From an uncultured Halobacteria archaeon (GTDB taxonomy: Archaea; Halobacteriota; Syntropharchaeia; Alkanophagales; Methanospirareceae), in contig CAYYNW010000011.1 of NCBI GenBank assembly GCA_964473145.1, forward strand, positions 1 to 22,431: DNA of 22,431 nucleotides, read 5' to 3'. The position numbers were made by a program, and so were the translations under genes. This document shows positions 186 to 9,004 of the stretch, in pieces (positions within the stretch are counted from its first letter, which is position 1; each line of letters begins with the position of its first letter). Under the pieces are notes generated by a model. The model worked only from the letters and a program-made list of their open reading frames with translations, did not search any database and was not told where the DNA came from.

Positions 186-1542
186 CTATCTCCGATCCAC
201 GAGCCGTTTCGGCCTGCCCTTGACCTGGTAGAGCTCCAAGCCGCCAGGGCCGATGAAGTTGAAGATGATCTTGAACGAATTCTCGGCATACGCCTCGGCG
301 AGCCGCGGCTTGTACTGGAAGAAGGCTTTGAGGAAGTTCTCCTCCACTACTTTGCGATCAGATCGTTGAGGATCGAAGCACTCGACGCTCACGCGCATCA
401 CCGTCTCGCCTTCATCGTCACCGCCGTAGAGGAACGCTTCGTACTCGCCCGTGAGGTACTCCATGTTCTCGCGCTGGAAGACGCCGCGTTCGACGTCCAC
501 ACGGTTGAACGGCGTCTCGGCGACCCAGAAGGTCTCGGCCTCGCGCTGCGGGTTCAGTACCCTTACATGCGTTCTCCCACAGGGGCACCGGTCGCGTGTG
601 AGCACCACGGTCGTGTCCTCTGTATCGTAGTTGAGGAGGAGCGTGCCGCACTTCTCGCCCACCGGGAGGAGTGTGGAGCACGATGCGCCCGCATTCGCCC
701 TCGGGCACGAACCCGCCGAAGTGCGGATCGTACACATCCAGATGTACCAGGTCTTCAGGCACGTGGAGGCCCTTCAGCGCAGTGCATTCGCCACACATCG
801 TGCCCTCGGTGCTCCCGTAGGTATTGTAGACGTCACAGCCCCAGAGCTCCGCGAGGTATGCACGTGACTCATCGGCGAAACTCTCTCCACCGACCACGAG
901 CCGCTTGACGCTCGAGTCCTGTGGCGGGAGCTGCTCCAGCGTCATCCGCCGTGCGAGCCGCAGGAGTTTGAAGACACTGCCTACCAGGCCTGTGGGCTGG
1001 TACGATTTGAGGATCCGAACCGGGAAGGTGCATTTCCCTTCCGGGATGATGGTCATCCCGATCTTCTGTGCGGCGAGCGTCATTGTGTTCGCGCCCACAT
1101 TCATCCCGTAGGAGGCGCAGACCACGACGCGATCTCCGGGCCCGAAGCCCTGCGAGACGAAACTGCGTGCGTACTTCTCCGCGTACCGTTGCCAGTCCTC
1201 CCAGGAGAGGAAGAATGCCTTGGGCGTGCCGCTGGTCCCGCTCGTCTCGTGGAGCGTGAAGATCTCAGGCCAGTCGCGGCTCCGGAACTCGAACTCCGCA
1301 GTCTCCAGCGGCTGATGCTCGCGGATCGTCTGACCGGAGATAATGGGCAGTTCCTGCAGATCTTCGTGGGTTCGCACGTCGGCAGGTTGAATGCCGTGCT
1401 CACGGAACCACTTCTTATAGAACGGCGAATGCTCGTACGCGTAGTTGACCGTATAGCGGATGCGTTCGTCAACGAGCGCGTCGAGATCTCCTCGTTCCAT
1501 CGTCTCGATGGCTTCGTTAAAGAACCGTTTTCCGGAGTTCAT
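186..1542 (-). pseudogene. paaK: Phenylacetate-CoA ligase (PaaK / coenzyme F390 synthetase family), interrupted by a frameshift near 677-684
   Basis: ORF 418-1542 carries adenylate-forming motifs (HETSGTSGTPK, NTYGSTEG) up to ...GECGRIVL. Family-like sequence then continues in another frame in ORF 186-737 (STLLPVGEKCGTLLLNYDTEDTTVVLTRDRCPCGRTH...GRPKRLVD). The out-of-frame tail of the long ORF is Arg/Pro-rich nonsense. Confidence 0.8.
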
Positions 1543-3030: not shown

Positions 3031-3033
3031 TCC

Positions 3034-3067
3034 GAAGCACGATTGACGTAAACTTTTAACGTGCTTC
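3034..3067 (+). terminator. Inverted repeat immediately after the xpb stop codon
   Basis: gaagcacg (3034-3041) and cgtgcttc (3060-3067) form a perfect 8-bp stem. The 18-nt loop contains cttttaa. Confidence 0.25.
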
Positions 3068-3084
3068 AGAACAAAGAAGAAATC

Positions 3085-3357
3085 ATGGAACTCATTTCGA
3101 TTCCCATTCTCATCAGCAAAGAAGGTACATGGTTTGTGGCATCGTGCCCGCTCCTTGACATAGGCACGCAGGGAAGGACCGAGGAAGAAGTGAAAGAGAA
3201 TATGGCGGATTTAATCGAAGAGTACCTAGAAGATCCCGACACAGCAAAACCTGACTTGGAGGCTATTTCGTCAACGTCAATCACTCTGACCTCCGTTCCC
3301 ATCAAGATACGAGGTGTTTATCGTGGCACTGGAACTTCGCCCGCTACCACAGCATGA
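3085..3357 (+). CDS. hicB: HicB-family (UPF0150) antitoxin-like protein
   Basis: MELISIPILISKEGTWFVASCPLLDIGTQGRTEEEVKENMADLIEEYLEDP matches the HicB N-terminal-domain pattern: beta strands, a G-x-T/S-x-E-E-A motif, then a helix ending in YLE. The ATG at 3085 is preferred over the GTG at 3061. The C-terminal tail looks atypical. Confidence 0.65.
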   Translation: MELISIPILISKEGTWFVASCPLLDIGTQGRTEEEVKENMADLIEEYLEDPDTAKPDLEAISSTSITLTSVPIKIRGVYRGTGTSPATTA

Positions 3358-3463
3358 GGTCATAAAAATCCTTGAAACGAACGGATTTAGCCGCGTCCGA
3401 TCACGAAAGCATATAGTATCTAAGAGGAGAGACACTGAAAAACAAACAATAAGGTATTTTTAA
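3323..3463 (+). pseudogene. hicA: HicA-like mRNA-interferase remnant, C-terminally truncated (46 codons)
   Basis: A small frame missing from the ORF track reads VALELRPLPQHEVIKILETNGFSRVRSRKHIVSKRRDTEKQTIRYF*. The EVIKILExxGF...R..(S)H(I)V pattern is HicA/YcfA-like. The roughly 25 C-terminal residues expected after the His region are absent. It overlaps the hicB 3' end by 35 nt. Confidence 0.4.
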
Positions 3464-3496
3464 AAAATGAGACACTATAAATAGGAGGTGATATGA

Positions 3497-4699
3497 ATGA
3501 GGTTCAGTGATGTCAAGCAATTATATTACATCACCCATGTCAGGAATGTCCCCTCCATACTGAAGCATGGCATCCTCTCTCATGAGCGTGTTGAAAGAGA
3601 GGGGTTAGAGTACCGTCCCATTTATGATGCCGAAATCGTTGGAAGGCGTAAAGAAATTCGGACACCTGATGGTAGAGATCTTTGGGATTTTGCCAATCTT
3701 TACTTCCAAGCCCGAAATGCGATGCTCTATCGCGTAGTGACCGAAAAGAGCGCTGATGAAATAGCGGTTCTCGCGGTCAACAGAGATATCCTTACCATAA
3801 AACGGCCGGATTTGTTTATCTCTACCGGTAATGCTGCAAGCGTAGGAAGTAATATCCTCCCTAAAAAAGAAGGGTTGGCCAATATTGACGCTAATGTCCT
3901 GACTATGGAATATTGGACGGTAGAGGATGGTTCAAAAAGAAAGATGATGGCTGAGTGTCTAGTTCCAGACAGCGTGCCATCTTCCTTAATTGAAACGATC
4001 TATGTAGCAAGTCACCGGGCTGCGGAGCAGGTGAAAGCGGAAGTACCCCAGACAAACATACCGATCATTCCTGAGCCGTATATGTTTTTCCAACCTTATA
4101 ATAAAATAGATCTCACTTCCAACCTTTCCCTTATCGAGGGAGATATGCTATTTTCTCGGCTGCATACACTTACCATAAGTGTGAACATTGTTGGCATCAT
4201 GGGGAAAGGACTTGCTTCGAGGGCGAAATATCAGTTTCCTGATGTTTATGTATTTTATCAAGACTTATGCCGAAAGAAAACCCTGCGAATGGGCAAGCCG
4301 TATCTTTATAAACGTGAATACGAATACTCATTCGATTATCAATTGGCAGACGACCCGTTAACCTTGTCCAATGCGAATTTGGAGACCTGGTTCCTCCTAT
4401 TTCCAACGAAACGCCACTGGCGCGAGCGGGGTGACATACATGGCATTGAGGAAGGATTGCAATGGCTTGTAGATAATTATAAAGGAGAAGGAATTAAATC
4501 ACTGGCGCTCCCAGCTCTTGGGTGTGGGCTTGGTTGGTTGGAGTGGCGTGAGGTAGGCCCGTTACTCTATAGATACCTTGCAACACTTGAGATCCCCGTT
4601 TGGATCTATTTACCCCGAGAGAGAAAGGTTCCTGACCAAGAACTTACAAAAGAGTTCTTAGAACGAGAAGGATTGGCTCGGTTCACTCGTGCCACGTGA
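3497..4699 (+). CDS. Fusion protein: N-terminal DarT-like (DUF4433) ADP-ribosyltransferase domain plus C-terminal DarG-like macrodomain
   Basis: Uninterrupted 400-aa ORF. A strong SD (ggaggtg, 3484-3490) lies 6 nt before the ATG. N-terminal landmarks: LYYITHVRNVPSILKHGILS, NLYFQARNAMLY, STGNAAS, KRKMMAECLVPD. C-terminal landmarks: NIVGIMGKGLA, LLFPTKRHWRE, LALPALGCGLGWLEW, VWIYLP. AT-richer than the flanks. Confidence 0.85.
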   Translation: MRFSDVKQLYYITHVRNVPSILKHGILSHERVEREGLEYRPIYDAEIVGRRKEIRTPDGRDLWDFANLYFQARNAMLYRVVTEKSADEIAVLAVNRDILTIKRPDLFISTGNAASVGSNILPKKEGLANIDANVLTMEYWTVEDGSKRKMMAECLVPDSVPSSLIETIYVASHRAAEQVKAEVPQTNIPIIPEPYMFFQPYNKIDLTSNLSLIEGDMLFSRLHTLTISVNIVGIMGKGLASRAKYQFPDVYVFYQDLCRKKTLRMGKPYLYKREYEYSFDYQLADDPLTLSNANLETWFLLFPTKRHWRERGDIHGIEEGLQWLVDNYKGEGIKSLALPALGCGLGWLEWREVGPLLYRYLATLEIPVWIYLPRERKVPDQELTKEFLEREGLARFTRAT

Positions 4700-4800: not shown

Positions 4801-6342
4801 ATGCTCCCCAGTGAACTCCTCATCACGCGGACGAAAAAGGACCGAATCCATCCGGATTTCCTGCAGGTGGATGCGGAGCAGCTGGAGCTGGCCGAGGAGC
4901 TCATCAGCGTGTACCAGCAGTTTGTGGGCACGAAGAAGGGCGAGCTCAACGATTTTATGGAAGAGTTCGAGCAGGGTCTGGAGTTCAAACGCATCCGCGG
5001 CTTGAGGACGCTGCTGGAGCGCCGGTGCACCTTCGTCTCGAAGCATGTAGTCGCGCCCGTAGAGGCACGGCGGGCGGTATTTCACGCGGCCAACGCTCAA
5101 AACGTGACGTCTCAAGCCGAGCGAATCGTGGTGATTACTGCTGTTGCGGGAGAACTGAACGTTTCCGCGAGTGATCTGGAGCAGTCGCTCTGGGCCGATC
5201 TGGACGCGGAAGTGTTCCTGGAGCAGTTTGAGCCGCTGAGGCCCGAGGAGTTGCTGCGGTGGTACAACCTCTCGTTAGCGCAGACGCTGCTCTTCAGGGC
5301 AACTGGTATGACCCTGACGATCATGGACCGTACGCCAGCGCTCTTCCGGGCGATCAAGTATTTCGGGCTGATGTATTTGCCCGAGGGCGGGCAGAAGATA
5401 CGGATCGAGGGCGCGCCGTCGTTACTCAAGCTGAGCGAGCGATACGGCACGGCGCTCGCCAAGCTGCTGCCCCTGATCGTCAGAAGTGGGAACTGGGCGC
5501 TCGACGCCGAGATCGTGGTTCGGAGGGAGAACACGCCGCGGATCTACCATTTTCTGCTGGACAGCCGCGATAAGCATGTGGTGACGAGCGACGAGGGAAA
5601 GGGGGAAGAGGTAACAACCACATTTGACAGCAGCGTCGAGCAGAAATTCTACACTGAGTTCGTCTCGTTACCGATCGCGCAGCGGTGGGAGCTTGTGCGC
5701 GAGCCGGATGTCATCGTAACGAAGGGGGGCGTGCTCATCCCGGACTTCAAATTCGTCCATAAAGAATTGAGCCTGGAGACGTATTTCGAGATCGTGGGCT
5801 TCTGGACCGAGGAATATCTCAAGCGGAAACTGGCGAAGATACGGGCATTGCCGTTCACGATGCTCGTGGCCATTGATAAAAGCTTAGCGTGCTTCAACTT
5901 CGAGCCCTTCGGGTTCGGGCTGGAGCAGCCGCTCATCCTCTACAGCAAGAAGGTGCCGGTTGGCGAGGTTGTCCAGTACTTAACGGCACTTGAACGAGAG
6001 GCAGTCACGAAGCAGGTGGCATCCCTGAAAGAGCAGGCAATAGAGCTTACAGGGGATATTATTCCGATTAAAGACCTGGCGAAGAGGTACGGGATGGGTC
6101 AGGATACCGTGCGAGCGAGCATGAAGGATCCGGAGTACGTGGTGTTCAAGGAGGTTTTCGTCAAGCAGAAGCTGCTGCGAAAAGTGAAGGAGAAGCTGGT
6201 GGCTGTCGAGAAGTACGTGGAGGCACGCAACATCATCGAGGAGGCAGGGCTAAGGAATGCGGATGAGGTGCTGGCGCACTTCGGATTCAGGGTGCAGTGG
6301 AAGGGGTTGGATCCAGGTGCGGCAACCATTACGCTTCAATAA
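4801..6342 (+). CDS. bax1: Bax1 (DUF790) nuclease, the partner of XPB
   Basis: 513-aa ORF. The N-terminus MLPSELLITRTKKDRIHPDFL is typical of Bax1. The nuclease region reads FDSSVEQKFYTEF...WELVREPDVIV...VLIPDFKF...YFEIVGFWTEEYLKRKL. It lies on the same strand as xpb. Confidence 0.9.
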   Translation: MLPSELLITRTKKDRIHPDFLQVDAEQLELAEELISVYQQFVGTKKGELNDFMEEFEQGLEFKRIRGLRTLLERRCTFVSKHVVAPVEARRAVFHAANAQNVTSQAERIVVITAVAGELNVSASDLEQSLWADLDAEVFLEQFEPLRPEELLRWYNLSLAQTLLFRATGMTLTIMDRTPALFRAIKYFGLMYLPEGGQKIRIEGAPSLLKLSERYGTALAKLLPLIVRSGNWALDAEIVVRRENTPRIYHFLLDSRDKHVVTSDEGKGEEVTTTFDSSVEQKFYTEFVSLPIAQRWELVREPDVIVTKGGVLIPDFKFVHKELSLETYFEIVGFWTEEYLKRKLAKIRALPFTMLVAIDKSLACFNFEPFGFGLEQPLILYSKKVPVGEVVQYLTALEREAVTKQVASLKEQAIELTGDIIPIKDLAKRYGMGQDTVRASMKDPEYVVFKEVFVKQKLLRKVKEKLVAVEKYVEARNIIEEAGLRNADEVLAHFGFRVQWKGLDPGAATITLQ

Positions 6343-6443
6343 GTGGTGTTAAACCTCAAAAAAATTCTAACTATGCGAGTAAGCAGCGCAAAGCGTCGGA
6401 GATACATGCACGTTCGACTTTAGCCGCTGGTTATGCATTCCTA

Positions 6444-6920
6444 TCAACCATTTACTGCCCCAAGCTTCCTATCAGTGATCTGCCTTATTATGGCAGTAGT
6501 CGACCCCCAGTCAATTTCAGATAATTTGTTTGTTTTTGGAATGTGTACCGTAAATTCTCTTTGATTTTCAGTATGATGATGCCTAACGTCTCTCAAAAAA
6601 ATCCAATACGCTTCGTTCTCTAACTCTACGTATTTTACGAGCATTACAACTGTCAAAAGACTACGAAGATAATTATATGTCGATATCTTTAATTGAATAG
6701 TTTCTTCGTTTTCATGCCCACTGCTATTTCGTGATGCTTTCAATTGGACAAGTAATTGCAATCCTTTTAGCTCTCCATTTTCCGCGATACCAATCTCGAA
6801 GTCTACGCCGTAATCATTTTGAGGCCGATTGACAGGCCAGCTTTGAGGTATATGATTACGTAAGAATGTTTCGGATTTCTGTTCAATGATATGCGTTTCA
6901 TGTCTGATTGGATATGGCAT
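6444..6920 (-). CDS. DUF4365 domain protein (restriction-endonuclease-like fold)
   Basis: 158-aa ORF. NDYGVDFEIGI...GELKGLQLLVQLKAS followed by ...VVMLVKYVELENEAYWIFL matches the DUF4365 pattern (DyGiD, a Q/E-x-K motif, then PvllV...ayW). An aggaag RBS-like motif lies about 9 nt upstream. Very AT-rich. Confidence 0.75.
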   Translation of the reverse strand: MPYPIRHETHIIEQKSETFLRNHIPQSWPVNRPQNDYGVDFEIGIAENGELKGLQLLVQLKASRNSSGHENEETIQLKISTYNYLRSLLTVVMLVKYVELENEAYWIFLRDVRHHHTENQREFTVHIPKTNKLSEIDWGSTTAIIRQITDRKLGAVNG

Positions 6921-7146
6921 CGTTAAGTCTTCCTAAAAGCATAACATTCACTTTTCCTCGCGGGTGCGGTATCTCCCTCCCTTCGGTCTCCGCGACTTCC
7001 AGCCACAGTTCGATAGCGATTTTAATCTCCCGTAACGCCGCCTCCTCTGTCTCGCCAAATGCCGAGCAGCCGGGTAACTCGGGCACCACCGCAATGTACC
7101 CTTCGTCCTCGTCACTATAGAAGATCTCGATCGCGTATTTAGACAT
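6898..7146 (-). CDS. hicB: HicB-family (UPF0150) antitoxin-like protein
   Basis: Taking the internal ATG at 7146 gives 82 aa: MSKYAIEIFYSDEDEGYIAVVPELPGCSAFGETEEAALREIKIAIELWLE. This is a textbook HicB N-terminal domain. The longer ORF extension (to 7284) is hydrophobic nonsense. The 3' end overlaps the DUF4365 start by 23 nt. Confidence 0.75.
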   Translation of the reverse strand: MSKYAIEIFYSDEDEGYIAVVPELPGCSAFGETEEAALREIKIAIELWLEVAETEGREIPHPRGKVNVMLLGRLNDAISNQT

Positions 7147-7206
7147 CGCTTTTCCCTCCACGTGAATGAAGAGCATAAAGGGATTTAAGAGTAAAAGAAG
7201 ATACGT

Positions 7207-7767
7207 ATGAGAAGGAAAGAAGTAAACATGGCAGAGCAAGTCGAGAGCGGCTTTCAGAGGGAGAAGTTTAAGCAGGTGCTCCATTACCTCATCTTCAAGT
7301 GCGGCTCGCTGGAGAACGTCGGGAAGACCGTGCTCTTCAAGCTCCTCTACTTCTCGGATTTCGATTACTACGAGCTCTACGAGGAGAAGTTAACCGATGA
7401 ATCGTATCGCAAGTTGGAGCACAGGCCCGCTCCGAGCCATTTTGACGACGCGGTGCGGGAACTCGAAGTCGAGGGCAAAATTGAAACGACGGTTGCGACA
7501 TTCGGAACGTTCGATCAGCAGAAATTTCTCCCCGTTAAAAAGCCATCGCTGGATCTGCTCACGGCAAATGAGCTCCAGGTCATCGAGAACGATATCGCGA
7601 AATACTGCAGCATGAACGCAAAACAGATAAGTGCATTTTCGCACAGAGACATACCATATAAAGCAACTGCTGAGGGCGATATTATCGACTACGAATTGGT
7701 ATTCTACAGAGACGTCCTGTTCTCTGTCCGAGAATACGAAGATGACCGAGTTCTTGCAGGTCGATGA
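7207..7767 (+). CDS. Panacea / DUF4065 (SocA-, GepA-like) antitoxin-domain protein
   Basis: FKQVLHYLIFKCGSLENVGKTVLFKLLYFSDFDYYELYEEKLTDESYRKLEHRPAP fits the DUF4065 pattern (KLlYf.D...g.plt...Y......GP.p). An alternative start is the ATG at 7228 (MAEQ...). It is divergent from the hicB/DUF4365 pair. Confidence 0.7.
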   Translation: MRRKEVNMAEQVESGFQREKFKQVLHYLIFKCGSLENVGKTVLFKLLYFSDFDYYELYEEKLTDESYRKLEHRPAPSHFDDAVRELEVEGKIETTVATFGTFDQQKFLPVKKPSLDLLTANELQVIENDIAKYCSMNAKQISAFSHRDIPYKATAEGDIIDYELVFYRDVLFSVREYEDDRVLAGR

Positions 7768-7846
7768 ATTCGCGAAGGACCTGAAAAAGTTGCGTAAAAA
7801 GTTCAGGAACATAGACCGCAAAACCTGCCAAAGCATCCAAAAGTGA
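7742..7846 (+). pseudogene. RelE/ParE-superfamily toxin N-terminal stub (34 codons)
   Basis: MTEFLQVDEFAKDLKKLRKKFRNIDRKTCQSIQK* resembles the N-terminal helix of RelE/HigB-like toxins (F.KDLKKL.KKyrsl..d). It overlaps the upstream gene by 26 nt, as a cognate toxin would. It stops about 60 residues short, just before the trm1 promoter region. Confidence 0.4.
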
Positions 7847-7879
7847 CTTTTAAGTGCGAAAACGTTATTCCACTATCCT

Positions 7880-9004
7880 ATGTTCACCGAACTCACCGAA
7901 GGCACCACCAGGATTTTAGTACCGAAGCAGCACCGTACCCGATCCATGTTCTACAATCCGAAGATGGAGCTCTGCCGCGACATTGACGTCGCGAGCATTG
8001 CCGTTTTCGCCGCCTCGTATCCTTCCCAACCGCTCAGTTATGTCGAAGCCCTTGCCGGCACCGGGGCCCGTGGCGTTCGCGTCGCCAACGAGGTCGGCCT
8101 CCGCGTTACGGTGAACGATCACAGCACGCCCGCCTTTGAGCTGATTCAGCACAATATCGCCTTGAACGGCGTAGAAGCGCGGGCAACGGCATCGCACGAG
8201 AACGCGAACGTGCTCTTACATCGAACTCCGTTTGACCTTGTGGATCTCGACCCCTTCGGCTCGCCCGTGCCATACCTCGATGCCGCTTCGCAGTCGGTAA
8301 AGAAGTTGCTGCTCGTCACGGCGACCGATACCGCGCCGCTCTGCGGGGCGCATACCGGCGGCCTCCGGAACTACGGCGCGCGACCACTGAACACGGAATA
8401 CCACGCGGAGCTGGGCACCCGCGTCCTCCTCGGCGCGGTCACCCGCGAGCTTGCCCGGCATGATAAGGCCGTCCAGCCGCTGCTCTCCTACGCCTCTGCA
8501 CATTTCATCCGGCTCATCATACGCATAGAGCACGGCGCGAAGAAGGCTGATGCGAGCATACAGCGGCTCGGGTTCATCGCGCACTGCTTCGCCTGCGGCC
8601 ATCGATTCGCCTTTCCGTACGCCGAACTGCTGGAGCAGTCCGTGACGACGACCTGCGCGCTCTGCGACCACCGGATGCGGCTCGCAGGTCCGCTGTACCT
8701 GCATCCGCTAAAGGTGCGTGAATTTTGCGAACGCGTGCACGAAGAAGTAGGACGGCGACCGCTGGGCACGAAGCGTGAGGCGTTGAAGATCCTCTTTACG
8801 GCCGGCCGCGAGCTGGACATACCCTTCTTCTACGAGCATCATGCGCTCTGCAAAGCACTGCGCATCCCGCCACCCCCAATCACCGCGCTCATCGACGCGC
8901 TACAGGAACGCGGCTTCTCAGCGAGTAGAACCCAATTCTCCGATACCGGGCTAAAGACGGACGCGCGGCTAGATGAGCTAAAAGCGCTGCTGGATAGGTT
9001 GTAA
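7880..9004 (+). CDS. trm1: tRNA (guanine26-N2)-dimethyltransferase Trm1
   Basis: FYNPKMELCRDI, SAM-site EALAGTGARGVRVANE, the signature DLDPFGSP, and a Cys4 cluster (CFACGH...CALCDH). Confidence 0.92.
   Translation: MFTELTEGTTRILVPKQHRTRSMFYNPKMELCRDIDVASIAVFAASYPSQPLSYVEALAGTGARGVRVANEVGLRVTVNDHSTPAFELIQHNIALNGVEARATASHENANVLLHRTPFDLVDLDPFGSPVPYLDAASQSVKKLLLVTATDTAPLCGAHTGGLRNYGARPLNTEYHAELGTRVLLGAVTRELARHDKAVQPLLSYASAHFIRLIIRIEHGAKKADASIQRLGFIAHCFACGHRFAFPYAELLEQSVTTTCALCDHRMRLAGPLYLHPLKVREFCERVHEEVGRRPLGTKREALKILFTAGRELDIPFFYEHHALCKALRIPPPPITALIDALQERGFSASRTQFSDTGLKTDARLDELKALLDRL

Follow-up and report, generated by a model that had tools for sequence, protein, structure and literature searches.

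An overlapping hicB-DUF4365 gene pair in an archaeal chromosome as a probable junction left by an integron-type cassette

The overlapping HicB-like and DUF4365 genes of this archaeal DNA very probably mark a recombination junction, formed at a hotspot of chromosomal gene flux where a mobile integron-type cassette replaced the tail of an orphan hicB. They had been proposed as a toxin-antitoxin or two-gene defence module in a first-pass annotation of the window, by which we mean the whole 22,431-nt stretch analysed here. Both open reading frames (ORFs) lie on the minus strand, the 82-aa HicB-like ORF at 7146..6898 and the 158-aa DUF4365 ORF at 6920..6444, and they share 23 nt (6898-6920). The annotation had placed them where the window is richest in AT, and on this point coordinates and GC scan agree: the line at 6541 has 20 G+C in 60 positions, and 6451-6950 is the lowest-GC 500-nt segment of the whole sequence (0.376 compared with 0.564 overall). 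To judge from a coenzyme F390 synthetase in the window (555 bits versus a cut-off of 459), with XPB-Bax1 and Trm1 as further archaeal pointers, the host is a methanogen-type archaeon.

Table 1. Features at and around the junction, in window coordinates
Feature	Position	Strand	Evidence
bax1 (DUF790 endonuclease), conserved right-hand flank	4801..6342	+	Pfam DUF790 E 4.8e-113; NCBIfam Bax1
T7 run	6358..6364	-	Immediately after R'; read from the sequence
attC-like recombination-site relic	6365..6436	-	R'' GCATAAC 6436..6430; R' GTTAGAA 6371..6365
Integron-type gene cassette, 581 bp	6365..6945	-	Similarity shared with DUF4365 cassettes from unrelated surroundings runs from GTTATGC into attC
Stand-alone DUF4365/DREN-like PD-(D/E)xK nuclease gene (predicted), 158 aa	6444..6920	-	Pfam, PADLOC, AF2, Foldseek; D36, D40, Q59, K61
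Chimeric hicB tail, 17 codons + stop	6898..6950	-	Cassette DNA; contains the 23-nt overlap with DUF4365
5' core-site-like heptamer GTTATGC	6939..6945	-	25 nt before the DUF4365 ATG
Native hicB part, codons 1-65	6951..7146	-	Pfam HicB_lk_antitox/UPF0150; homology to L137/L138 stops exactly at 6951
Panacea-domain (SocA-like) gene, pointing away from hicB	7207..7767	+	Pfam SocA_Panacea E 9.7e-14
trm1 (tRNA m2,2G methyltransferase), conserved left-hand flank	7880..9004	+	Pfam TRM E 2.3e-97

The DUF4365 protein is a self-contained, stand-alone predicted DREN-type PD-(D/E)xK nuclease. Its residues 13-135 matched DUF4365 (PF14280) at 69.4 bits (E 4.1e-19; cut-off 24.3 bits), while an NCBIfam search returned a model for neither this nor the HicB-like protein. 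With the AF2 model (pLDDT 85.8, pTM 0.80) as the Foldseek query, the top 15 PDB matches were all SPARDA DREN-APAZ chains (E 3e-9 to 1e-7), followed by Hjc and I-Ssp6803I; a search of the PDB by sequence alone gave a marginal DREN match (E 0.65), so that the fold search was needed. Together with the Pfam assignments, these matches bear out the domain assignments and the restriction-endonuclease-like fold of the first-pass annotation. Likewise, the D...(E/Q)xK pattern that it had picked out, DYGVD...VQLK, aligns with GID...VQIK of DREN, and D40, Q59 and K61 correspond to D41, Q60 and K62, the experimentally defined catalytic residues of the SPARDA DREN nuclease (PMC12205087). Across 23 members of the family, D36, G38, D40, Q59 and K61 do not vary.

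Although it belongs to the same Pfam family as DREN, the effector domain of short-Argonaute (SPARDA) systems such as NbaSPARDA (9jsz/9jt2) and XauSPARDA (9qcc), the protein stands alone at 158 aa without an APAZ region, shares only 18-20% sequence identity with them and has a beta-beta-alpha extension added at its C terminus (residues ~100-157). No Argonaute gene was found in the window, where all ORFs of 300 aa or more were assigned to other families. The same DxGxD...QxK motif is present in EAT16, an eCIS-associated toxin whose N-terminal DUF4365 domain is cytotoxic in E. coli unless the motif is mutated (PMC11297309); by analogy, this favors the earlier idea of a toxic or defence-type effector. 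EAT16, however, is a secreted two-domain protein loaded on a contractile injection system, and no such system is present here. PADLOC returned matches to Aga_REase and PDC-M02A models, the latter comprising about a dozen A-component models (stand-alone proteins of 165-190 aa) matched only partially, in two stretches, with E values of 4e-13 to 4e-4. No PADLOC model was matched by the HicB or the Panacea protein, and a literature search on PDC-M02 found nothing on its composition.

The boundaries of the DUF4365 gene resemble those of an integron-type cassette. In an alignment of 14 loci, homology begins at the 5' heptamer GTTATGC, which is the exact reverse complement of GCATAAC at the 3' end, and the GC content of the cassette is 39.2%, compared with 56.4% for the window. 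Both the 5' leader (GTTATGCTTTTAGGAAGACTTAACG-ATG) and the 3' pattern GCATAAC...GTTAG(G/A)(C/A) are conserved in hicB-less homologues from unrelated contexts. The 25-nt leader contains a Shine-Dalgarno-like AGGAAG ahead of the DUF4365 ATG; in bacterial arrays (L021, L025, L027, and L116), the R' box of the upstream attC ends 17-30 nt before this start codon. Relative to the core G|TT, the 5' junction is displaced by 6 nt in the upstream direction, a position at which a clean IntI crossover would not fall. On the other side, the flank from 6364, right after R', is common to the window and to the right flank of a different cassette in a related archaeon (L133). The T7 run found there is a possible archaeal oligo-T terminator of a hicB-DUF4365 transcript.

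Regular expressions combined with DNA folding gave clear attC arrays but under-called sites that were obvious by eye; covariance models were therefore used, one including the window site's own attC family (R1) and one leaving that family out (R2). The attC structure (R''/R', L''/L', and bulge) was examined on 26 sites, in which 84.7% of cells were paired, compared with 23-38% when the partners were slid, and in which compensatory changes were seen. The attC-like site of the window, directly after the DUF4365 stop, was its sole match to R1 with an E value below 1 (23.9 bits, E 0.007), and both of its ends show homology to the attC sites of L054, L056, and L032. Because R2 did not detect it and its hairpin is weak, not surpassing shuffled sequences (z -1.5 and +0.4), the site is read as an eroded relic. 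No second attC was found in the 22-kb window (R1, E < 1), nor was an integrase or tyrosine recombinase among its assigned ORFs (Pfam, NCBIfam).

Elsewhere, DUF4365 genes sit in same-strand attC arrays (L011, with 8 sites; L021, with 5; L025, with 6; L027; L059; and L116), and in L025 the array is adjoined by an integron integrase (TIGR02249, 429 bits versus a cut-off of 265). R2 found the L059 array sites and the attC of L133 although it had been built without them. At the level of gene order and recombination sites, these arrays document single-gene integron cassettes as the vehicle in which this family of predicted DREN-type stand-alone nucleases moves across many bacterial phyla. A plasmid collection held distant homologues only (at most 37% identity), with no annotated integron context.

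Gene neighborhoods do not support the view of HicB and DUF4365 as a module. The DUF4365 family comprises ~3360 representative clusters. An HMM search for HicB over 129 loci found it adjacent to DUF4365 only in the lineage of the window and its sister, and the adjacency is absent from ~90 other independent loci, an outcome that the annotation itself had named as counting against its proposal. Likewise, no HicB was among the Pfam families listed for 101 ORFs upstream of DUF4365, and 20 small upstream ORFs scanned singly gave no HicB/UPF0150 match. An all-against-all BLAST of 115 neighboring ORFs from 33 loci, searched for a conserved partner gene, revealed no recurrent family beyond close relatives. 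Apparent HicB-DUF4365 fusions in two longer homologues (P0017 and P0058) were rejected, as the extensions were a mis-called upstream frame or an unrelated C-terminal region.

The 82-aa ORF nevertheless encodes a genuine N-terminal domain of HicB (UPF0150), as in HicAB type II toxin-antitoxin systems (HicB_lk_antitox PF15919, E 5.8e-10; UPF0150 PF21748, E 1.3e-8), and its ATG at 7146 is the conserved start of its homologues (M-x-KYAIEIF). Codons 1-65 are 90-91% identical in nucleotides to the hicB of relatives with an empty site (L137 and L138). Many of the 1761 HicB homologues are 80-97% identical, yet only across residues 1-65, and in comparison with ~100 close homologues the divergence sets in immediately after residue 65. 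In place of the canonical tail (...PRGK-ELLSTLYETAISTARPQRA), the ORF ends in VNVMLLGRLNDAISNQT and a stop codon, encoded by the conserved 5' leader of the cassette and the first DUF4365 codons. The new HicB tail is, by this comparison, the cassette leader translated in a different frame; since the leader also occurs in loci without hicB, the overlap can hardly represent the evolved translational coupling that the annotation had seen in it. This short HicB has no DNA-binding domain.

In L137 and L138, the gene order is trm1-hicA-hicB-bax1, with nothing downstream of hicB, and hicA lies upstream of hicB with an 8-nt overlap in these two loci and in L131. The window is homologous to L137/L138 at 8000-7865 and 7150-6951, and homology resumes only at 6312. 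The intervening 7864..7151 has no counterpart in these relatives, where hicA stands, its place being filled in the window by the Panacea gene and 7768-7864. The slot of hicA, which the annotation had assigned to DUF4365, is thus upstream of hicB and now holds the Panacea gene. Orthologues 91% identical in DNA belong, at the equivalent chromosomal position, to canonical hicA-hicB operons, whereas in the window hicA was found on neither flank of hicB, the C-terminal tail of HicB is replaced, and the downstream gene encodes a predicted DNase of unrelated fold and not the HicA RNase. The native part of hicB is, to all appearances, the antitoxin half of the ancestral operon, now orphaned.

The flanks of the locus are conserved: trm1 adjoins hicB or hicAB in L130, L133, L137, and L138, and bax1, convergent with the cassette, is syntenic in L039, L041, L137, and L138. 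The orphan hicB beside trm1 is also retained with wholly different downstream cargo, namely, an HNH_5 nuclease in L040 (same species), an FRG protein in L130, and a 219-aa attC-bearing gene in L133.

These observations suggest an ancestral trm1/hicA-hicB/bax1 locus in which a divergent Panacea-domain gene took the place of hicA and so orphaned hicB. A segment with the 581-bp AT-rich cassette at its core would then have replaced the last ~20 hicB codons, the spacer, and the last ~10 bax1 codons, bringing in the GTTATGC core with the 25-nt leader behind it, followed by the DUF4365 ORF and an attC that is now eroded. The hicB frame now runs across the junction into the cassette leader to the first stop, and this produces the 23-nt overlap. 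The promoterless cassette would presumably be transcribed by read-through from whatever drives hicB, with the transcript ending at the T7 run after attC. The nuclease itself may act alone as a defence or abortive effector, gated by oligomerization, as DREN is by assembly into a D2 tetramer, and not by HicB.

The cassette is, judged by its divergence, younger than the split of its two archaeal carrier lineages. Between the window and the sister lineage (L039), it is 97.9% identical (97-99% inside), compared with 80-92% for the flanks, and dS is 0.02 for the cassette and 0.30 for hicB. The tract of high identity begins ~45 nt inside hicB, and the breakpoint of L040 also lies inside hicB. Spread between the two lineages evidently took place by homologous recombination, via the core genes on either side.

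A functional pair of recent origin, in which the orphan HicB N-terminal domain and its cassette-encoded tail were recruited as antitoxin or regulator of the nuclease and the overlap serves translational coupling, is highly improbable. In its favor, the window lineage and its sister (L039 and L050-52) have kept the two overlapping ORFs whole, hicB persists without hicA (dN/dS 0.13 over codons 1-65), and a promoterless cassette must rely on upstream transcription; furthermore, because DUF4365 domains can be cytotoxic (PMC11297309), some control of the nuclease would be needed. However, the lack of a HicB partner at ~90 independent DUF4365 loci argues that the family evidently does not need a cognate antitoxin, and hicB is kept with other cargo in L130, L133, and L040, so DUF4365 does not explain its retention. 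The cassette is also far younger than hicB, which leaves little time to co-adapt, and the leader sequence that makes up the new HicB tail is unselected. The established partner of HicB domains is HicA, an RNase whose fold is different, and the short HicB here lacks a DNA-binding domain.

Rather unlikely is that the pair is functionless, the cassette being a recent arrival that is unexpressed or inactive and decays in its archaeal host. Decay would fit the eroded attC, the window without integrase or array, the frameshifted DUF4365 copy of a relative (L055), the loss of the start codon frame in a related archaeal locus (L053), and a GC content of 39%, far from the 56% of the host. The window and L039 differ by 6 non-synonymous and 2 synonymous changes in DUF4365, a ratio in the same direction although the changes are too few to show selection. 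However, the ORF and all catalytic and invariant residues are intact in the window, L039, L041-52, and L053, identical copies occur in >10 metagenome contigs from several samples, the SD-like motif precedes the ATG, and family-wide dN/dS is 0.12-0.39. It is distinctly unlikely that integrons had no part in this locus, with homologous recombination between hicB and bax1 as the sole means of moving an ordinary AT-rich island gene, and with coincidental attC- and core-like motifs. Such a history would agree with the failure of R2 to find the window site and with the spread between lineages, which clearly took place by homologous recombination, but the motifs flanking the gene match base for base, at both ends, those of cassettes in bona fide arrays, the two heptamers are exact reverse complements, and R' is precisely where the boundary in common with the L133 cassette lies.

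The locus can be compared with integron cassettes and their attC sites, archaeal integrons, and CALINs (PMC9668308). As in these, a single promoterless ORF lies between a GTTRRRY-like core and an attC-like R''...R' imperfect palindrome, close homologues occur in same-strand attC arrays, one of them by intI, and the gene carried is one for defence or restriction; as in archaeal integron cassettes (PMC9668308), the host is an archaeon and the relatives are in bacteria. In contrast to them, the cassette is alone, with no array or integrase in 22 kb and an eroded attC, and it occupies the hicB/bax1 hotspot and not an attI, with a 5' junction off the canonical crossover and local spread by homologous recombination. 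An integron cassette in an archaeon and an orphan antitoxin are both of kinds already known, to which the locus adds a new example. Cross-domain cassette traffic was proposed by Ghaly et al. in 2022 (PMC9668308), and a cassette that retains its core site and the remains of an attC, lodged in the chromosome of a methanogen-type archaeon, offers a concrete, datable instance of it. The predicted product would be a potentially lethal solitary DNase without an Argonaute sensor or antitoxin.

A broader reading, that the trm1-hicB/bax1 interval of these Methanomicrobia-like archaea is an integrase-less docking site that captures and swaps bacterial-type attC cassettes, is unlikely. The cassettes would be DUF4365, the 219-aa gene of L133 with its textbook attC, and possibly the HNH gene of L040, and the orphan hicB would provide transcription, as Pc does in integrons. 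Scanned with the attC model, neither the loci with an empty site (L137 and L138) nor those with other cargo (L130 and L040) gave a match, and hence no attI- or attC-like target site was identified in them. If true, the interval would be an archaeal chromosomal mini-integron platform feeding cross-domain defence genes into methanogen-type genomes.

More generally, a tight overlap in an AT-rich islet can be an insertion scar and not a functional pair, and neighborhood-based discovery of toxin-antitoxin and defence systems has to be backed by a look at empty sites and at co-occurrence. The first-pass annotation had also described a hicB-hicA remnant in another islet of the window (islet 1). Profile searches did not confirm this, the 98-aa ORF at 3061-3357 giving a sub-threshold PHD_like match (E 0.015); by eye, however, this ORF and the 49-aa ORF at 3314-3463 do resemble HicB and HicA.

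The overlapping gene pair reported in the first-pass annotation was recovered intact, with both ORFs on the minus strand of the window (see the table below). Pfam profiles matched above curated thresholds for both proteins (DUF4365, E 4.1e-19; HicB_lk_antitox, E 5.8e-10; UPF0150, E 1.3e-8), and the ATG chosen as the hicB start agrees with the conserved M-x-KYAIEIF start of HicB homologues. The pair is also, as described, the most AT-rich region of the window: the 500 nt at 6451-6950 contain 37.6% GC versus 56.4% overall, and the count of 20 G+C in the 60-base line at 6541 agrees.

Coordinates of the gene pair, the inserted cassette and other features of the window
Feature	Coordinates	Strand	Remarks
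Weak attC-model match	1467-1522	-	within F390 synthetase gene; 12-18 bits, E 0.4-1.3 (both models)
98-aa ORF	3061-3357	+	UPF0150/HicB-like by eye
49-aa ORF	3314-3463	+	overlaps 98-aa ORF
DarT-DarG gene	3497-4699	+	400 aa; DarT domain 7-198, macrodomain 212-382
Cassette	6945..6365	-	581 bp, 39.2% GC
R1 match (putative attC)	6436..6365		23.9 bits, E 0.007
DUF4365 ORF	6920..6444	-	158 aa
ORF overlap	6898-6920		23 nt
HicB-like ORF	7146..6898	-	82 aa, ATG at 7146 as start
Panacea (SocA-like) gene	7207-7767	+
RelE-like stub	7742-7846		34 aa, no Pfam match

The proposal that HicB and DUF4365 form a module did not survive a neighbourhood survey covering 31 loci from reference genomes, 80 from metagenomes and several found by exact-protein look-up. 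Using an HMM built from 120 HicB homologues, an adjacent HicB was detected at the surveyed DUF4365 loci only in the window organism's own contigs (L041-L049, 99-100% identical) and in a sister lineage (L039, L050-52); one further locus gave a weak, non-adjacent match. When 101 ORFs lying upstream at approximately 88 distinct loci were compared with Pfam, HicB was not among the families listed, which included DNA methylases, IS110 transposases, RelB/Phd, KwaB, AbiU2, TIR and others. HicB/UPF0150 was found in none of 20 small codirectional upstream ORFs scanned singly, and clustering of neighboring ORFs found no conserved DUF4365 partner. The gene pair is real, but the loci surveyed give no support to a HicB-DUF4365 module; lack of co-occurrence elsewhere was what the first-pass annotation had itself named as grounds for rejecting it. 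Beyond close relatives, a recurring partner was hinted at only by a 145- to 170-aa upstream gene abutting DUF4365 in two Bacteroidota loci (L007:1433-1867 and L009:3487-3996), in which an R-x4-H (HEPN-like) motif was seen by eye.

The overlap itself is probably a by-product of an insertion junction. Among 1,761 HicB homologues, dozens were 80 to 97% identical to the window protein, restricted to residues 1-65; thereafter, the homologues read ...PRGK-ELLSTLYETAISTARPQRA and the window protein reads ...PRGK-VNVMLLGRLNDAISNQT*. In a nucleotide alignment of DUF4365 genes and their flanks from 14 unrelated contexts, a leader of about 25 nt, GTTATGCTTTTAGGAAGACTTAACG, was conserved ahead of the DUF4365 ATG in loci without hicB. 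Translated in the hicB frame, this leader and the first DUF4365 codons yield exactly the aberrant HicB tail, which argues for such an origin of the 23-nt overlap.

The inserted element is probably an integron-type cassette. In homologues, the DUF4365 stop is followed by GCATAAC, which matches the 5' GTTATGC exactly when reverse-complemented, and then by an imperfect palindrome ending in GTTAGGC or GTTATGC. Twenty-six such sites were verified by coordinate, aligned and tested for an attC-type structure (R''/R', L''/L' and one bulged base): 84.7% of cells paired, versus 23 to 38% with partners slid by 1 to 3 columns, and compensatory changes were present at L''/L'. A covariance model built from these sites (R1) revealed same-strand arrays around DUF4365 genes in Pseudothauera (L011, 8 sites), Halomonas (L021, 5 sites), Natronospirillum (L025, 6 sites), Salinivibrio (L027) and loci L059, L078 and L116. 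The Natronospirillum array begins beside a divergent integron integrase (TIGR02249, 429 bits versus a cutoff of 265).

In the window, the only R1 match with an E value below 1 begins eight bases past the DUF4365 stop. Against circularity, a second model (R2) was built without the cassettes most related to that of the window; it recovered the array of L059 as well as a textbook attC from a related archaeon (L133; 29.7 bits, E 0.0016), scored the L054 and L056 sites weakly and did not find the window site, which also folds poorly. We interpret this site as a probable eroded attC, based on its R'' and R' boxes and on homology at both of its ends to the L054, L056 and L032 sites. The core G|TT begins 6 nt past the 5' junction, and the 22 kb contain no integrase. 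The weak model match within the F390 synthetase gene is most likely due to chance.

Among HicB proteins with a canonical tail, the closest come from two relatives with an empty site (L137, GCA_015665585.1, and L138), where the gene order is trm1(-)/hicA(+)/hicB(+)/bax1(-), with an 8-nt hicA-hicB overlap and only 45 to 56 nt between hicB and bax1. As hicA lies upstream of hicB there, and not downstream, the suggestion that DUF4365 occupies a hicA slot is not supported at this locus. Homology to the window spans 8000-7865 (trm1) and 7150-6951 (hicB) and resumes at 6312 within bax1. These breaks suggest that hicA, together with the region upstream of it, gave way to a Panacea-domain gene plus a short stub (7151-7864) and that the whole segment from 6950 to 6313 is new relative to L137/L138. 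The Panacea gene and the RelE-like stub stand where the relatives have hicA; with a putative antitoxin-domain gene in place of a toxin gene, two antitoxin-type genes are now back to back, neither of them with a partner. An orphan hicB is kept directly beside trm1 in L130, L133-L136 and the window, and hicA-hicB is retained in L137, L138 and L131.

Cargo at this site varies. A same-species contig (L040) matches the window exactly as far as about position 6965 and then carries an HNH_5 nuclease gene (3213-3660, E 6.5e-13) instead of the DUF4365 cassette; the break falls within hicB, and the cargo brought with it the 3' end of another hicB allele. An FRG-domain gene follows hicB in a Methanomicrobia MAG (L130). 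At the same hicB/bax1 site, L133 (1762-3095) has as cargo a 219-aa gene without Pfam matches, ended by the attC at 3032-3092, and its right flank is homologous to the window from 6364, immediately past R'. Directly behind hicB, L133 also has a duplicate of part of the trm1 5' region. It is quite unlikely that the hicB/bax1 interval is an integrase-less docking site for cassettes in these archaea. When the window is compared with L039, identity is 97.9% in the cassette (dS 0.02) and 80 to 92% in hicB (dS 0.30) and the remaining flanks, which indicates a cassette younger than the host split. The high-identity tract starts about 45 nt inside hicB, and the cassette evidently passed between lineages by homologous recombination through flanking core genes.

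The assignment of DUF4365 to a nuclease family was correct. A database search returned 277 homologues, mostly stand-alone proteins of 155 to 175 aa from many bacterial phyla and a few archaea, and searching 1.84 billion representatives with a profile gave 3,360 clusters at an E value of ≤1e-3, many of 150 to 175 aa and some representing fusions of about 660 aa. Residues H10, S16, D36, Y37, G38, D40, Q59, K61, K96, Y105 and W106 were invariant in 23 diverse members. In the PDB, the AlphaFold model (pLDDT 85.8, pTM 0.80) best resembled SPARDA DREN-APAZ proteins, whose DREN nuclease domain accounted for the top 15 matches (best E 2.7e-9, TMq 0.5-0.65); Hjc resolvases and I-Ssp6803I came next. D40, Q59 and K61 align with the catalytic D41, Q60 and K62 of NbaSPARDA (PMC12205087), and the protein shares the DxGxD...QxK motif on which cytotoxicity of the eCIS toxin EAT16 depends (PMC11297309). 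PADLOC matched stand-alone PDC-M02A candidate models and an Argonaute-associated REase model. A SPARDA system is ruled out, as the protein lacks an APAZ region and the window lacks an Argonaute.

The nuclease gene is intact, with all catalytic residues kept. It has an SD-like AGGAAG within its leader and no promoter-sized space of its own, and a T7 run follows the putative attC. DUF4365 would be transcribed by read-through from hicB and translated from its own ribosome-binding site, and may serve as a defence or abortive DNase that works alone and needs self-association for activity; the analogy is with DREN, which is inactive as a monomer and active as a D2 tetramer (PMC12205087). The HicB fragment is probably not involved. 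Other lineages keep an orphan hicB beside trm1 with unrelated cargo. Recruitment of HicB and the nuclease as a pair is highly improbable given the lack of co-occurrence, the young cassette and a natural HicB target whose fold is unrelated.

A silent, decaying passenger is less readily dismissed but still unlikely; it would fit the eroded attC, the frameshift in one relative (L055), the shifted start in another (L053) and the substitutions within archaeal lineages, too few to show selection. In L055 (731-1284), the DUF4365 gene is an apparent pseudogene. In L053 (2378-2971), where the upstream gene encodes a UvrD-like helicase, a 1-nt deletion just past the ATG has moved the start to the ATG within the GTTATGC core, giving MLLGRLNDAYPIRHE.... 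An origin without integron involvement is very unlikely, as cassettes from bona fide arrays are homologous to this one, base for base, at both ends and the boundary at R' is shared. The locus is best described as an archaeal instance of an integron-borne cassette for a DREN-like nuclease, beside an orphaned hicB.

Coenzyme F390 synthetase (555 bits versus a cutoff of 459), XPB-Bax1 and archaeal Trm1 assign the window to a methanogen-type archaeon, and the closest HicB sources are archaeal MAGs. Ghaly et al. (PMC9668308) described integrons and CALINs in archaea as well as the sharing of cassettes across domains; the window locus adds a further instance rather than a new kind. Elsewhere in the window, a single protein joins a DarT ADP-ribosyltransferase domain to a DarG-type macrodomain, a toxin-antitoxin fusion in one polypeptide, encoded on an AT-rich insert that splits xpb-bax1; the fusion is absent from L039. 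The nearby 98-aa ORF, for which Pfam gave only a subthreshold PHD_like match (E 0.015), overlaps a 49-aa ORF resembling, by eye, a HicA remnant and is conserved in L039.
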